NCBI GenBank assembly: GCA_964573245.1
Contig: CAZNJA010000005.1
Span: 1-34,825 of the forward strand
Origin: an uncultured bacterium
GTDB taxonomy: Bacteria; CAIJMQ01
Direction of reading: 5' to 3'
DNA: 34,825 nt
Position numbers and translations under genes: made by a program. Shown here piece by piece: positions 21,935 to 26,603 of this stretch; within the stretch, counting starts at the first letter, position 1; each line of letters opens with the position of its first letter. The notes under the pieces were generated by a model. That model did no database searches. It saw only the letters and a list, made by a program, of their open reading frames with translations, and had not been told where the DNA came from.

Positions 21935-22061
21935 GATTACAGCGATTTCTAAAATACGAGATTACAGGGATTAACCCCATCAGAAACCCCGACGTAACGT
22001 CGGGGCGAGGTAAACTAAATCTTTAATCGCTGGAATCTTTATTTCTAATCTCCGTAATCTT
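21935..22061. repeat. Inverted GATTAC-type arms enclosing a CCCCGACGTAACGTCGGGG palindrome
   Basis: GATTACAGCGATT / AATCGCTGGAATC and AGATTACAGGGATTA / TAATCTCCGTAATCT pairs. AACCCCATCAGAAA is a variant of the CCCGTTAGA end. Confidence 0.65.
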
Positions 22062-22063
22062 CA

Positions 22064-22672
22064 TTATATTGTTTGTCTTCCTTTAAACGCTTCTTTTAAA
22101 GTAAGTTCATCGACATATTCAATATTTCCGCCTACAGGAATACCTTTTGCCAGGCAGGAGACCTTAACTTTAAAATTTTTCAGCAATTTTACCATGTAAT
22201 GCAGAGTAAATTCTTGGTTTGTCGCCAATATTATTTCTTTTATATGGTCTTCCTTTATTCTCTTAATGAGTTTGTCCACTTTTAAATCCTGGGGATTTTT
22301 GCCTTCAAGCGGCGCAATGCTTCCGTGCAGGACATAATAAAGCCCTTTGAAGATTCCGCTTTTTTCGATTAGAGCTACTTGATGCGGCTCTTCCACAATA
22401 CAAATCTTGTGTTTATCTCTTTGGGGATTTTCGCAAATAGAACAGAGCCCGCCTTGACTCGCTGTATTTGGCGAGGCAGGCTTTCCTTCAGTAAAAGAAT
22501 TACACTTATCGCAATACCCTATTCTTTCAAGATTTTTTATTGCTTTTATAAGCGGTTCAATTTTATGCGGTTTATCGAGCAAATGCAGAGCGACTCTTTC
22601 AGCCGACTTCGGCCCCAAAGAAGGCAGTTCCGTCAAACGCTCGATTAACTCTTCTATGCTTTTTGGATACAT
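22064..22672 (-). CDS. recR: Recombination mediator RecR
   Basis: LPSLGPKSAERVA (HhH), CxxC...CxxC zinc finger, ICIVEEP and GIPVGGNIEYVDELTL. Confidence 0.93.
   Translation of the reverse strand: MYPKSIEELIERLTELPSLGPKSAERVALHLLDKPHKIEPLIKAIKNLERIGYCDKCNSFTEGKPASPNTASQGGLCSICENPQRDKHKICIVEEPHQVALIEKSGIFKGLYYVLHGSIAPLEGKNPQDLKVDKLIKRIKEDHIKEIILATNQEFTLHYMVKLLKNFKVKVSCLAKGIPVGGNIEYVDELTLKEAFKGRQTI
22448..22480 (-). mobile_element. 33-nt CCTGCC..GGCGGG element in frame in the recR zinc finger
   Basis: CCTGCCTCGCCAAATACAGCGAGTCAAGGCGGG encodes PASPNTASQGG; same ends as the element at 18246-18294. Confidence 0.85.
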
Positions 22673-22698
22673 AACTATCTCTCACTGCGTTCGAGATG

Positions 22699-22751
22699 AA
22701 ATTAAAAATTAAAGATTAAAAATTAAATATACATATTAAATATCAAAAATT
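22699..22751 (+). repeat. 7-nt-periodic arm (TAAAAAT-type), left of the nuclease gene
   Basis: TAAAAAT TAAAGAT TAAAAAT TAAATAT ACATAT TAAATAT CAAAAAT. Confidence 0.7.
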
Positions 22752-22848
22752 GATAGCTATTATACCTTATCGCTGTGTAGGTAGTAATTTTTAACCCCAT
22801 GTCATTCCCACGCAGACTGGAATCTAAAAACAAAACTACAAAACTCTG

Positions 22849-23886
22849 TTACTCATTAAATGATACTTCTGAACCAATTTCTAATACTTTTAAATATTTT
22901 TTATACTCATCTCTTAATTCCGAAGTTAATTCTGAGAAGGTCTTTATAATTGCATCTTTTGAAAGGGTAAATGTTGAATCTTTTTCATATCCATATAAAA
23001 AACAATGAATATTGCTTGCATTGGGTTTATGTTTCTGGATTAAAGCTTTATAGGTAAGTACTTGCCCGATATCTGCAGCTTTTAATTTAATCCCGGGTGC
23101 TTTTAATTCAATGATTACAACGTCTTGCGTATACGGAACCACTTTCGCAATAATGTCTGGTCGTTTTTTTGTTTCAGGATCATCCTTTAAATTCATGTCT
23201 AAATATTTTGACAACGGTTCATCACTAGAAACAATATCAAAGTTTTTTCCTAAAAGCCATGTATGGTTTTCAAATATATGATGAACATCTGCCTCTTGTT
23301 TTTCTGGGTTTTTTATAATTTCTTCAAGCAAATCTATAATCTTCAATTTTTGATAAACGAGAGATGTCATCATTGAAACTTGATTTAGGCGGAGATCATT
23401 TAAAAGTGCGCTAAATTTGGAAAGATCTACAGATGTTGTTTCTGATATTTTTTTTAAAATTAAATCTATTTTTTCTGCTTTTATTTCATATATCTTAACA
23501 GCAATTCTATCAAGTGATTCAAAACTAGATTCACTTAATTTTAAAATATTAGGATTAGCTAGAACTTTTTCAAATACATCTGGATCTTGTTCAATTAATT
23601 TTTCAAAACCTTTACTATCTGTTACATTGATTGTTTTCTGCCAACCAGTAAAATTAATTAAATCACCATCAATAAGTTTTTTAAGATTCTGCCAATCAGT
23701 AAAATGAAGATTAAACCTTTGGTCTTTATTTTTGGTTTTCCCCCAGAAGTTTTTTTCAAAAATAATATAGTTTTTATCTGGTTTATCTTTCCAACCGATT
23801 ACAGCAAATTTAACTCGTCCACTATTCCATTGACGAGTATCTGCTTTCAATTGTTTCGGTCTATTGTCTTCCCTTTTTTCAATCAT
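22849..23886 (-). CDS. Stand-alone PD-(D/E)xK nuclease, putative anti-phage defence protein (Shedu-like architecture)
   Basis: C-terminal EADVHHIFENHTWLLG...KRPDII...IIELKAP...IGQVLTY. Interrupts the normally adjacent ybaB-recR pair and looks AT-richer than its neighbours. Confidence 0.7.
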   Translation of the reverse strand: MIEKREDNRPKQLKADTRQWNSGRVKFAVIGWKDKPDKNYIIFEKNFWGKTKNKDQRFNLHFTDWQNLKKLIDGDLINFTGWQKTINVTDSKGFEKLIEQDPDVFEKVLANPNILKLSESSFESLDRIAVKIYEIKAEKIDLILKKISETTSVDLSKFSALLNDLRLNQVSMMTSLVYQKLKIIDLLEEIIKNPEKQEADVHHIFENHTWLLGKNFDIVSSDEPLSKYLDMNLKDDPETKKRPDIIAKVVPYTQDVVIIELKAPGIKLKAADIGQVLTYKALIQKHKPNASNIHCFLYGYEKDSTFTLSKDAIIKTFSELTSELRDEYKKYLKVLEIGSEVSFNE

Positions 23887-23951
23887 ATTATGCTACTACC
23901 ATTTCTTTATCTCTGATTTTGGGTGTGTGGCATTACTTAAAGGTTTCAGAG

Positions 23952-24005
23952 AATTTTTAAATTTTGATTTGTATTTTTGATTTTTGATATTTAATTTTTT
24001 ATTTT
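23952..24005 (-). repeat. 7-nt-periodic arm, inverted partner of 22699-22751
   Basis: Reverse complement TAAAAAAT TAAATAT CAAAAAT CAAAAAT ACAAAT CAAAATT TAAAAAT has the same register, including the single 6-nt unit. Confidence 0.7.
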
Positions 24006-24009
24006 ATTA

Positions 24010-24324
24010 TTATGTCAGCCCCGGAATATTCATTCCCCCTGTGACTTGTGAAAGTTCTTCCTGCATCATTTCGCGCGATTTTCTTGTTGCTTCGTTTATA
24101 GCCGCCTGAATTAAAGTTTCCAGCATCTCTATATCATCGGGGTTTACTACTTCTTTGTCTATTTTTATTGACACCAGTTCCTGTGCCCCATTCATTTGGA
24201 CTTTTACCATTCCGCCGCCGGCTGTGGCTTCAACTTTTTTGGAAGATAATTCTTCCTGAACTTTTGCCATTTTCTCCTGCATTTTTTGCGCTTCTTTTAA
24301 AAGTTTACCCATGTTCTTAGCCAT
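24010..24324 (-). CDS. ybaB: YbaB/EbfC nucleoid-associated protein
   Basis: [23 protein letters not shown] and [17 protein letters not shown]; lies downstream of dnaX. Confidence 0.95.
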
Positions 24325-24348
24325 TTTTTATCTCCCGTTTATCTTTTA

Positions 24349-24458
24349 CCCACGCACCAGTCCTTCCACTAATATAATGGTGGACGGTGCGGCCCAGCAC
24401 CAGAACAAAGTTCGGTGCTGGATTAGTCCCATACCAAAGCAAATCTTTTGGTGCGGGA
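24349..24458. repeat. Three tandem GCACC..GGTGC hairpins (REP/BIME-like)
   Basis: Units at 24349-24392, 24393-24421 and 24427-24458. Confidence 0.7.
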
Positions 24459-24485
24459 GGTTTCGTCTTCCCCTAAAGGAGAATC

Positions 24486-26096
24486 CTATTCCTTCTGGGA
24501 AGGCTTCACTATTCGAGCATTAAATTTTTTAATGGTTTTTTCGATTATATCCTCTTTTTTGTCTTCTTGTTTCTCATGATGGATGAATTCTACCTGGATT
24601 TCATGCCCGATTTTTTCTTTGATTTTGCTTTGTATAAACTTTTTGCTTTTTTCCAAAGTAGTTTTAAAGTAATTGTTTGTTACGGGCAGTTCTATTTTTA
24701 CTATATTGTTGACCGCTTCAATTATTTTGCTGTTTGCAAGCAGTGTTGCAAGTGTTGTGCTTTTGTCTTTTATATCTTTTAAAATTCCCGCCCATATTGC
24801 TTTTAAGTTTTCGAAATTGATTTCGTCATACTTTTTTTTATTTTCCTGCACAGCAGGGTTGGGGGGGGGCGAATCGGAATCTTGGGTGTTTTTGGTGTAG
24901 GAGGCTGTGTTTGGGTCTTTTTTTTCTTTTGGTTCTTCCGCTTTTTTTTGTGTTGTTGAAATTGTCTTGTCGTTTTTTAAGGGGGATGTGGCTGCATTTT
25001 GCGAGTCCAACTGTTTAATCAAGCCCAGCATATAAATTTCCAAATCCATCAGCATGGATTCGCTTCTTTTTATTTTATAGGATATGGAAGATAATGAATC
25101 TATCAAAAAGAGGATTTGTTCTTCGCCGAAACTTTTTGAAAGTTCTTTTAATTCTGTCCGGTGATTTGGACTTGTGTCAATCAGGTCGAAAAATTCGTCC
25201 CCTTCTTTTACCAAAAGCATGTCTCTTAAAAAATGCATAAAGTCTTTAAGAAGTTTCGGGATGTCTTTGCCGCGCTGATTCAAATCGTTTAACAACTGCC
25301 ACATTTTTGCCGCGTTTTTTTCCGTAAAAAGTTTTGCAAGGTCGAAGAATATTTCTTCATCCACCAGCCCCAAAAGTTCTTTTGCTTTGTCTATTACTAT
25401 GTTACCGTTTGTAAATATCGATAGTTGTTCGAGTATGCTCTCGGCGTCTCTTAAACTGCCTTGAGAAAATTTTGCTATCAGGAACAAACTGTCGGAGTCT
25501 ATCTTTATTTTTTCTTCTTCAGCTATCGTTTTAAGTTTTTTTTCTATTAGACTTGTGGGAATCCTTTTAAAGTCGAAACGTTGGCACCGCGAAAGAATGG
25601 TAAGTGGGATTTGGTGCGGCTCAGTGGTTGCGAATATAAATTTCACATGGGAGGGCGGTTCTTCCAATGTTTTTAAAAGTGCATTGAATGCTTCTTTGGT
25701 CAACATGTGAACTTCGTCTATTATGTAAATTTTGAATTTGGATTTTGATGTGCCAAATTTTATGTTTTGCCGCAGATCTCTTATTTGCTCAATGCCGCGA
25801 TTCGAAGCGCCGTCTATTTCTATAACATCCAAGCTTCTGTTTTCCGTAATTTCCAAACACGAAGAGCAACTGTTGCATGGCTCTGTTTTTGTGTCTTTCT
25901 CACAGTTTATGGCTTTAGCTAAAATCCTTGCTGTGGTGGTTTTTCCGATACCTCGGGGACCTGCAAATAAATATGCGTGATAAACCCTATTTTGTTTTAA
26001 GGCGTTTTGCAGGGTGAGAGCAATATGTTCCTGTCCTAAAATATCACCGAATTTTTGTGGGCGCCACTTCCTCGCCAAAACTTTATATTCCGCCAT
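24486..26096 (-). CDS. dnaX: DNA polymerase III subunit gamma/tau
   Basis: YKVLARKWRP, GPRGIGKTT, IIDEVHML, FNALLKTLEEPP and TILSRCQRF. Confidence 0.97.
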   Translation of the reverse strand: MAEYKVLARKWRPQKFGDILGQEHIALTLQNALKQNRVYHAYLFAGPRGIGKTTTARILAKAINCEKDTKTEPCNSCSSCLEITENRSLDVIEIDGASNRGIEQIRDLRQNIKFGTSKSKFKIYIIDEVHMLTKEAFNALLKTLEEPPSHVKFIFATTEPHQIPLTILSRCQRFDFKRIPTSLIEKKLKTIAEEEKIKIDSDSLFLIAKFSQGSLRDAESILEQLSIFTNGNIVIDKAKELLGLVDEEIFFDLAKLFTEKNAAKMWQLLNDLNQRGKDIPKLLKDFMHFLRDMLLVKEGDEFFDLIDTSPNHRTELKELSKSFGEEQILFLIDSLSSISYKIKRSESMLMDLEIYMLGLIKQLDSQNAATSPLKNDKTISTTQKKAEEPKEKKDPNTASYTKNTQDSDSPPPNPAVQENKKKYDEINFENLKAIWAGILKDIKDKSTTLATLLANSKIIEAVNNIVKIELPVTNNYFKTTLEKSKKFIQSKIKEKIGHEIQVEFIHHEKQEDKKEDIIEKTIKKFNARIVKPSQKE

Positions 26097-26107
26097 ATCT
26101 ATAACCA

Positions 26108-26317
26108 TTTCGGAATGCGGATTTCGGAATGCGGAATGAATAATCTAAAAAGCGCAAGCCGAAATTTACAATCCAAAATCATTTTTATATTTTTGTATTA
26201 ATTTTTTATTCTGCAATCCCTGCCCGACAATATTTGGCAGGCGGGCGTATTCCGAAATCCGCAATAGTTTCTTCAGTTGTTTGTTTCTCCGCATTCTAAA
26301 ATCCGAAATCCGCAATT
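26108..26317. repeat. Inverted 7-nt-periodic arms (ATTTCGG/AATGCGG vs ATCCGCA/ATCCGAA) with a nested 27-nt CCTGCC element at 26219-26245
   Basis: ATTTCGGAATGCGGATTTCGGAATGCGGAAT left arm; ATTCCGAAATCCGCAAT and ATCCGAAATCCGCAATT right arms. Confidence 0.75.
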
Positions 26318-26321
26318 GAAA

Positions 26322-26603
26322 CGGTGATCATGCACCTTCTTTTCGTTCTTCCTTTCTCGGCAATTATCAAGCAGGTAACTCCAGCCAGACTAAACCCTGC
26401 GGCGCCCAGAGTTTTTTACTTACCGCTGCTTCCTTCCAGACCTGACGGGGTTCGTAAATCTCTGTCGCACAGGAGCTAGCTTTCATTGTCCCTTGCTTAA
26501 ATCTTAAACCCAGAAAGAATAAGACCTCCAAGAAGGAATTAAGCCCTGCTGTAGCGGATTGCAGGTTCAGGGCACCGCTATCTCCCCGCTTAGCATGACC
26601 ACC
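26322..26603 (-). ncRNA. ffs: Large (Alu-domain) bacterial SRP RNA
   Basis: 5' GTGGTCATGCTAAGCGGGGAGATAGCGGTGCCCTGAACCTGCAATCCGCT; helix 8 CCGTCAGGTCTGGAAGGAAGCAGCGG; complementary 3' GCATGATCACC; lies upstream of dnaX. Confidence 0.93.

Follow-up and report, generated by a model that had tools for sequence, protein, structure and literature searches.

Several kinds of short repeat are known to mark or bracket genes in bacteria. Repetitive extragenic palindromic (REP) sequences, REPINs and miniature inverted-repeat transposable elements (MITEs) are reportedly dispersed, palindromic and intergenic. The attC site of an integron is a complete hairpin 3′ of each open reading frame (ORF) and is recognised by IntI. 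The minimal mobile elements of Neisseria place different genes between the same conserved genes, carry no mobility gene and rely on homologous recombination in the flanks, and the STRR sequences of cyanobacteria are tandem heptamer repeats between genes. Here we describe a locus that resembles several of these in part, in which a predicted nuclease gene lies between two complementary arrays of degenerate heptamers (the arms) at the junction of ybaB and recR. It is found in a 34,825-nucleotide stretch of DNA from an uncultured bacterium of the lineage CAIJMQ01 (contig CAZNJA010000005.1, assembly GCA_964573245.1), hereafter called the window. The locus is one instance of heptamer-array hairpins that occur genus-wide at operon junctions, some with a gene in the loop position. 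We consider it rather probable that such junctions are tolerated landing sites whose cargo is exchanged by recombination.

Intergenic heptamers appear in two reports, as the TAACTGA repeats of Beggiatoaceae (169 direct sets and one indirect repeat; PMC4679880) and as the heptanucleotide elements of Geobacter (PMC2700814). Like the arrays studied here, those elements are tandem 7-nt units enriched between genes, often just upstream of starts, and have no known function. The descriptions there are of one unit, or a few, repeated in direct orientation, whereas here the arrays form inverted pairs, shift class between congeners and have genes between the arms. A further precedent is the ORF-bearing intervening sequence (IVS) of 23S rRNA, which is excised by RNase III (PMC4990558) and is, like the present insert, a low-GC segment with an ORF, located in an essential transcript and bordered by complementary ends that pair into a stem. 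Four-helix-bundle IVS-type genes of the genome studied here also lie between heptamer arms. However, the host is a protein-coding operon and the site is ybaB-recR in place of helix 25 or 45 of 23S rRNA, the cargo is a predicted nuclease, the heptamer arms are 80% paired, and no RNase III family match was found in the class.

The hairpins share with REP, REPIN and MITE-type repeats the form of short, dispersed, intergenic inverted repeats that are lineage-specific and present or absent at orthologous sites. They differ in that their arms are tandem degenerate heptamers of many classes and that some loops hold genes. MITE-like terminal inverted repeats are present (56-nt arms, 80% complementary), whereas no intact transposase of the REP-associated tyrosine transposase (RAYT) type was found in the genome of the window, that is, no single-copy RAYT with intact HUH motif and catalytic tyrosine flanked by the repeats. 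Integron cassettes are comparable as promoter-less single genes in one orientation with imperfect inverted repeats; here, in place of an attC hairpin, the ORF has one complementary half on its 5′ side and the other on its 3′ side, and no IntI with attI and a cassette array was seen in the genome, whose two tyrosine recombinases lie away from the window. As in the minimal mobile elements, content varies between conserved flanking genes without a mobility gene, but that concept does not include repeat arrays at the boundaries. None of the closest known systems combines heptamer arms, operon junctions and enclosed genes. A literature search, with subscription journals and supplements outside its coverage, found no description of inverted heptamer arrays around genes.

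Results

The locus is read from the minus strand in the order signal recognition particle (SRP) RNA gene, dnaX, ybaB, arm, 345-aa ORF, arm, recR and V-type ATPase subunit A. The ybaB-side arm (23952..24007) is A-rich on the coding strand and starts at the ybaB stop codon, its array beginning at −2 nt relative to that stop; the recR-side arm (22696..22751) is T-rich on the coding strand and lies 26 nt upstream of the recR start. An inverted-repeat search defined the two arms as 56 nt each, 80% complementary without gaps and 1200 nt apart. Tandem Repeats Finder (TRF) placed period-7 arrays at 22699-22751 and 23953-24005 (7.7 copies each, score 57, 4% indels), the top-scoring period-7 rows among the 37 TRF rows of the window. 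The arms pair at 45 of 56 positions with a local score of 57. Composition shuffles of both arms averaged 27.6 (sd 4.7) and none of 2000 attained 57; shuffles of the 7-nt unit order of one arm averaged 41.0 (sd 6.3), with 25 of 2000 attaining 57 and 1975 beaten. The original prediction that the arms are reverse complements in register is thus borne out, and they are more complementary than shuffled AT-rich sequence.

The arms are real and in register, and their complementarity comes mostly from a complementary unit consensus. Ungapped identity is 0.80 in register and 0.64-0.71 at offsets of ±7 and ±14, with secondary peaks of 0.67-0.76 at offsets −27, −20, +20 and +27 that correspond to a one-base phase slip, that is, a 6-nt unit. 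This unit, which had been pointed out as shared by the two arms, is indeed present in both; all 11 copies aligned for the repeat family described below conserve the slip segment, however, which is therefore a trait of the family and not evidence for co-evolution of these two arms. Nor are the arms a private pair. Against other AT-rich arrays of the genome (16 arrays compared), the left arm scores 67, 59 and 56 and the right arm 72, 68 and 68, so that other arrays match each arm as well as or better than its partner does. Neither inner spacer (65 nt from arm to cargo start codon, 23887..23951; 97 nt from cargo stop to recR-side arm, 22752..22848) folds on itself, with self-complement scores of 20 and 14.

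These controls bear on whether two independent AT-rich slippage arrays merely happen to flank an inserted gene. Part of the evidence is compatible with such a coincidence, given the share of the complementarity that the unit consensus supplies out of register. In the genome at large, adjacent spacers with a score of at least 32 are directly similar as often as they are complementary (15 and 14 of 656 pairs, respectively; random pairs, 6 of 656). We nevertheless regard coincidence as very improbable, in view of how seldom either kind of shuffle reached the observed score, of the full-length alignment of both arms to a family in which the unit variants follow a fixed order, and of a recR-side arm that is nearly identical across species.

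For comparison with relatives, G000 denotes the genome of the window, G000-G003 its genus, G004 a member of another genus and G000-G008 the class; L-numbered lineages or contigs are further loci compared. Both arms belong to a dispersed repeat of about 50 nt, built of degenerate heptamers, of which 11 copies align with their unit variants in the same order. An nhmmer profile of these 11 seed copies gave 17 matches at E<0.01, and the ybaB-side arm was matched at 24003-23956 with 22.9 bits. The repeat family is restricted to the genus: its 20-nt core (at most 2 mismatches) occurs 10, 3, 4 and 5 times in the four genus genomes, is absent from G004-G008 and has a single 2-mismatch occurrence in each of 3 of 32 more distant genomes, while the reversed core, used as a control pattern, gave 0-1 matches. 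In every case the repeat is turned with its outer end toward the end of a gene, at a distance of a few nt past a stop or of 7-26 nt ahead of a start on the opposite strand, and with its inner end toward the loop or cargo, in the manner of terminal inverted repeats.

Heptamer arrays are abundant throughout G000. TRF returned 541 rows, with 109, 71 and 25 at periods 7, 14 and 21, whereas a second-order Markov-shuffled genome gave 152 rows, with 6 and 12 at periods 7 and 14. The period-7-type rows merge into 156 arrays of several heptamer classes; TRF was used for these counts because a strict period-7 detector recovered only 14 arrays owing to the degeneracy of the units. The arrays lie mostly in spacers between genes of one operon, and 102 of the 156 are at most 20% within ORFs, by a crude ORF call that spans 91% of the genome. 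Intergenic autocorrelation is 0.317 at lag 7 against 0.284-0.290 at neighbouring lags, and the lag-7 excess is above 0.1 in 114 of 692 spacers of at least 40 nt. In same-direction spacers, A-rich arrays (n=40) lie a median of 8 nt downstream of a stop and T-rich arrays (n=22) a median of 19 nt upstream of the next start. Numerous arrays fold into hairpins inside a single spacer. A self-complement score of at least 36 was reached by 67 of 758 spacers as opposed to 2 of 758 after shuffling, a set that includes ordinary GC-rich terminator-like hairpins. The usual layout, clearest in the AT-rich class, is an array abutting the stop, a short loop and a complementary array that ends 10-25 nt before the start. 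The A-rich-then-T-rich order is not a general rule of composition; it holds for the AT class, other classes having their own fixed polarity. Among other repeats of the genome is a GC-rich palindromic element of 65-67 nt with at least three near-identical copies (C44:10520-10586, C25:9394-9460 and C16:21357-21421), two within loops of AT-class heptamer hairpins and one adjoining an IVS-type gene.

The genes on either side of the insert are ybaB (24010..24324, minus strand; PF02575, E 1.4e-34) and recR (22064..22672, minus strand; Toprim_4, RecR_C and RecR_HhH). Outside the genus, ybaB lies 11-213 nt from recR in 19 of 27 loci, in agreement with the earlier view that the two are normally adjacent; the other 8 loci have no ybaB within the 1.5-kb flank. 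Within the genus, the junction holds at least three unrelated contents, namely the 345-aa nuclease in G000 and in the identical metagenome contig L048, an unrelated 211-aa ORF in G001 and a 449-aa gene in G003. The related lineages L051 and L049 carry a 474-aa gene and a 458-aa gene plus an NYN-domain gene, respectively. The genes of about 450 aa in G003, L049 and L051 are 60-65% identical to one another and represent a family of no assigned function; a search of four family-level genomes gave 2-6 matches in each, and three more distant ones were found in G005. Members of this family stand at L044:2341-3690 and, in G000, at C11:8330-9652, C20:6142-7464 and C10:23110-24429; the N terminus of the G003 copy is hydrophobic.

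The recR-side array is kept in all genus-level lineages examined and is nearly identical in G000 and G001. The inverted scores across the slot are 57 in G000, 29 in G001, 31 in G003, 16 in L049 and 18 in L051, with shuffle means of 15-20; L049 and L051 retain only the recR-side array, and their scores are at shuffle level. Comparison of the interval across lineages, which had been proposed with the expectation of different cargo between conserved arms, thus revealed different cargo in congeners but no conserved pair of arms. In L049, the order is an array, a truncated second copy of the leader and the first ~11 codons of recR, more cargo, another array and the complete recR, which has a 5′ region of the G000 type; one L049 insertion lies outside the arm, within the 5′ end of recR. 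We interpret the truncated copy as the probable scar left by recombination anchored in recR. No similarity above shuffles was seen between the inner spacers of G000 and the slots of G001, G003, L049 or L051, and the 65-nt spacer gave no significant match to the congeners' slots. Downstream of the cargo, an apparent second copy of the 3′ end of ybaB was dismissed as chance, with 113 of 1000 shuffles scoring as high.

Other junctions vary in a similar manner. At gatC|gatA, G001 and G004 have spacers of 6 and 5 nt, respectively, G002 and G003 have 100-127 nt of arrays, and G000 has an HNH gene between two arms; this gene has a single full-length relative, 42% identical, in another genus. The lysS|ftsX-like junction, 36 nt long in G004, contains an arm-flanked ORF of 177 aa in G000; in G001 it has a NucS_C+EVE gene whose two bounding arrays differ in heptamer class, and in G002 it has genes for HicA, PIN/RHH and DUF3800 proteins. 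All three genus members (G000, G001 and G002) keep the T-rich array ahead of the gene downstream of this slot. At four junctions where G000 has a hairpin only, the congeners have spacers of 85-150 nt with arrays of another class or nearly none (1 nt in G001 at one junction), and the G004 spacers are an estimated 0-32 nt; similarity across species is limited to the spacer ends. Between orthologous junctions the hairpins differ in heptamer class, and some of these junctions have no hairpin.

Listing arm pairs over the genome recovered accessory cargo, with inverted scores of 57 for the nuclease (C5), 45 for the HNH gene (C9), 42 for the 177-aa ORF (C57), 34-35 and 31-35 for 23S_rRNA_IVP genes (C15 and C42) and 35 for a HEPN/nucleotidyltransferase pair with its neighbours (C48). 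Housekeeping genes are bracketed as well or better, including Der (C59, score 37), SecD (C15, score 55) and the alpha and beta genes of PFOR, the pyruvate/2-oxoacid:ferredoxin oxidoreductase (C3:39610-41536), which are enclosed by the strongest inverted arm pair of G000 (score 74, a further heptamer class). The association of heptamer arms with four-helix-bundle genes applies to part of the set: the flanks of 2 of the 6 IVP (23S-IVS-type) genes beat all 200 shuffles, and one is borderline. Bracketing of genes as a general rule was rejected; from the adjacent-spacer counts given above, it is neither general nor limited to foreign genes. The proposal that paired arms mark and define cargo slots is therefore not supported, in view of the bracketed housekeeping genes, the lone recR-side arrays of L049 and L051, the mixed classes around the G001 lysS slot and the L049 insertion beyond its arm. 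C57 also encodes, at L007:3807-4103, a bacterial homologue of the archaeal chromatin protein MC1 (PF05854, E 3.6e-22).

The sole ORF between the ybaB-recR arms (22849..23886, minus strand) encodes a 345-aa protein resembling PD-(D/E)XK nucleases of the Shedu and NucS kind. Its Pfam matches are all sub-threshold (SduA_C, 17.2 bits with a cut-off of 27, E 0.006; HSDR_N_2), so that an assignment to Shedu (SduA) is not supported, and no PADLOC model matched. NCBIfam NF050001, a restriction enzyme family, aligns to residues 143-287 with E 5.2e-9, far below the family cut-off. Atlas neighbours of the protein (score 0.91-0.92) carry SduA_C or NucS_C in part, which serves as a lead only, and the translation has a PD...ELK arrangement near residues 243-265. 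A PDB sequence search found nothing at E up to 1, and a single-sequence AlphaFold model (mean pLDDT 45.6) was unusable. Together these data identify the cargo, with moderate confidence, as a putative PD-(D/E)XK-type nuclease.

The cargo is also foreign. The GC content of the insert is 0.25-0.34 and that of the flanks 0.38-0.45, and the gene is present in none of 40 relatives. An 85% identical gene was found in two other metagenome-assembled genomes (MAGs; L046 and L047) between the mod and res genes of a Type III restriction-modification (R-M) system, its neighbours there being a methylase (N6_N4_Mtase plus TypeIII_RM_meth) and a ResIII helicase-nuclease gene. Nucleotide similarity to these loci runs from about codon 6 to the stop codon with nothing beyond the ORF; the 65-nt spacer shows no similarity to the Type III R-M donor context, and heptamer arrays are absent beside the homologue in both MAGs. 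G000 has no close copy of the L046/L047 Type III methylase. Given this absence, and that of the gene itself from the 40 relatives, the cargo is a recently acquired foreign orphan that lacks its usual mod and res neighbours. The idea of a single foreign-looking gene between the arms was therefore well founded, and the nuclease is not a gene fixed in arm-less relatives. In L046 (1007-6487) and L047 (1302-6704), the homologue is a third gene between mod and res and overlaps the mod stop, which suggests that it may be an accessory nuclease of Type III systems.

We then weighed whether the arms form a true cassette, in which paired arms would be recognition sites, as folded single strand or cruciform, for a trans-acting enzyme that moves arm-cargo-arm units; such a system would resemble integron attC cassettes, REPIN/RAYT elements or transposase-less insertion cassettes. 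Relative to G001, the G000 gatC|gatA junction has gained both arms and the HNH gene together; arms of at least four heptamer classes enclose genes typical of selfish or defence functions, namely the nuclease, the HNH gene, two or three IVS-type genes and the HEPN/nucleotidyltransferase pair; and the repeat is oriented as terminal inverted repeats would be, with the outer end toward the flanking gene and the inner end toward loop or cargo. A Y1_Tnp-domain gene is also present in the genome. Its single match, however, is weak (30-33 bits, profile positions 13-86 of 121), both HUH histidines are missing from the protein sequence, and the 520 nt upstream hold no heptamer element. This gene (C12:23859-25169, L057:2360-3670) encodes 436 aa with an N-terminal domain, a membrane segment and a long C-terminal region.

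The search for mobility enzymes covered the transposase and recombinase profiles Y1_Tnp, RVT_1 and Phage_integrase, with DDE families outside it. No reverse transcriptase (RVT_1) was found in G000. Tyrosine recombinases (PF00589) gave two matches each in G000, G001 and G002, with E of about 1e-55 and 1e-47 to 1e-49, and four in G003; those of G000 lie on C13 and C42, not near the window. The label integrase-free thus remains apt for the locus, there being nothing beyond two recombinases that are matched similarly in G001 and G002. Target-site duplications, expected of MITEs, were not evident at the ends of the 12 elements inspected with their flanks, where AT-rich ends make very short ones hard to exclude. 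The cargo genes are unique to one genome (the nuclease in none of 40 relatives, the HNH gene with its one distant relative), and arms are absent or non-complementary in L049, L051 and the G001 lysS slot. Nothing shows that the arms themselves move the gene, and we judge an arm-dependent cassette unlikely. SbcCD hairpin cleavage as a source of loop insertions was also considered and set aside, as SbcD_C matched none of the four genus genomes with a narrow model (5 of 14 controls) that makes this result uninformative.

Another possibility is that the arms act at the RNA level, pairing in the operon transcript so as either to insulate the flanking cistrons from the insert or to create a stalk at which processing would set the cargo mRNA free. 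Folding of the 1360-nt sense RNA to minimum free energy predicts that 43 of 56 arm bases pair with the other arm (ensemble expectation, 35.8 pairs). The arrays adjoin stop and start codons, and hairpins of different sequence at the same junctions of congeners could reflect selection on structure; the 23S rRNA IVS, processed by RNase III (PMC4990558), offers a precedent. The sense duplex is nonetheless weak, at −16.7 kcal/mol compared with −9.2 ± 2.5 for shuffles and with −29.9 for the stronger antisense duplex. In 12 heptamer hairpins in tandem spacers, we found no excess of wobble pairs on the sense strand, with 16 wobble-compatible mismatches in sense, 18 in antisense and 78 in neither. RNase III family PF14622 had no match in the four genus genomes, and PF00636 none in the nine class genomes (completeness 64-96%) as against 11 of 12 more distant relatives. 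Looping-out of the cargo in RNA, as originally envisaged, is thus predicted by folding but finds no strand-specific support, and no RNase III family match was found in these genomes; we think an RNA-level role quite unlikely.

The operon has a second heptamer hairpin at 26107..26316 (minus strand), between the SRP RNA gene (26598..26328, minus strand; the sole Rfam match in the window) and dnaX (26108..24486, minus strand), the member upstream of ybaB. Its arms (26107-26138 and 26288-26316; period 7/14) enclose a 149-nt loop and are of a heptamer class different from that of the ybaB-recR arms; the 3′ arm stops about 11 nt short of the dnaX start used by relatives. Scans of 22000-24600 found 13 promoter-like sites compared with 9.8 ± 3.0 in shuffles, none of them on the coding strand within the arms, and 2 terminator-like sites compared with 1.6 ± 1.1. 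With both near shuffle level, a role of the arms as promoters or terminators is unsupported. RecR has 202 aa in G000 and 191 aa in congeners, the 11 extra residues falling within the zinc-finger region.

Discussion

The ybaB-recR junction carries a heptamer hairpin element, with a foreign gene in the position of its loop. In the reading we favour, that of tolerated landing sites, junction elements of this kind would accept incoming DNA, which may become fixed there without breaking the operon. Cargo would be gained and lost through homologous recombination together with homology-facilitated illegitimate recombination; these events would be anchored by the arrays and by the conserved genes on either side, in place of a dedicated site-specific recombinase. 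The arms may in addition pair in the transcript, a predicted interaction that could keep the ybaB stop and the recR start together around the insert.

Several observations weigh against this reading. About half of the enclosed genes are housekeeping genes, and the accessory bias of the loops rests on few cases. At gatC|gatA, the whole arm-HNH-arm block is absent from G001, which suits insertion as a unit equally well as capture into an existing hairpin. Among genus spacers of at least 40 nt at orthologous junctions, the hairpin score is clearly above shuffles in only 8 of 13. The last 15 nt of the spacer at 22752..22848 resemble the end of the G001 cargo (13 of 15 positions), with a score of 20 compared with 18.2 ± 2.2 for shuffles that is not significant alone. 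No event was caught in progress, the argument proceeding from end states in 5-6 lineages, and this reading accounts neither for the 7-nt periodicity nor for the way in which the class shifts from one species to another.

A bolder proposal, possible but doubtful in our estimation, is that the genus maintains a new type of operon punctuation. Tandem-heptamer hairpins would be renewed by templated 7-nt stepping, both arms changing together and the class coming to differ between species; they would dock single defence or selfish genes independently of a recombinase and shield the neighbouring genes.

It is generally held that small, streamlined genomes leave little space for accessory DNA. In the present case, genes for defence and for toxin-antitoxin systems occur singly inside essential operons (dnaX-ybaB-recR, gatCA and lysS), always at junctions marked by arrays. 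If the arrays make these junctions safe or prone to recombination, this would explain how such organisms can try out defence genes with no need of islands, integrases or phages. Intergenic heptamer repeats, reported from several phyla but so far unexplained, would then also have a function. The association of arms with four-helix-bundle IVS-type genes bears on the origin of the 23S intervening sequences, and a class with no RNase III family match yet with many long inverted repeats inside its operons provides a testable lead.

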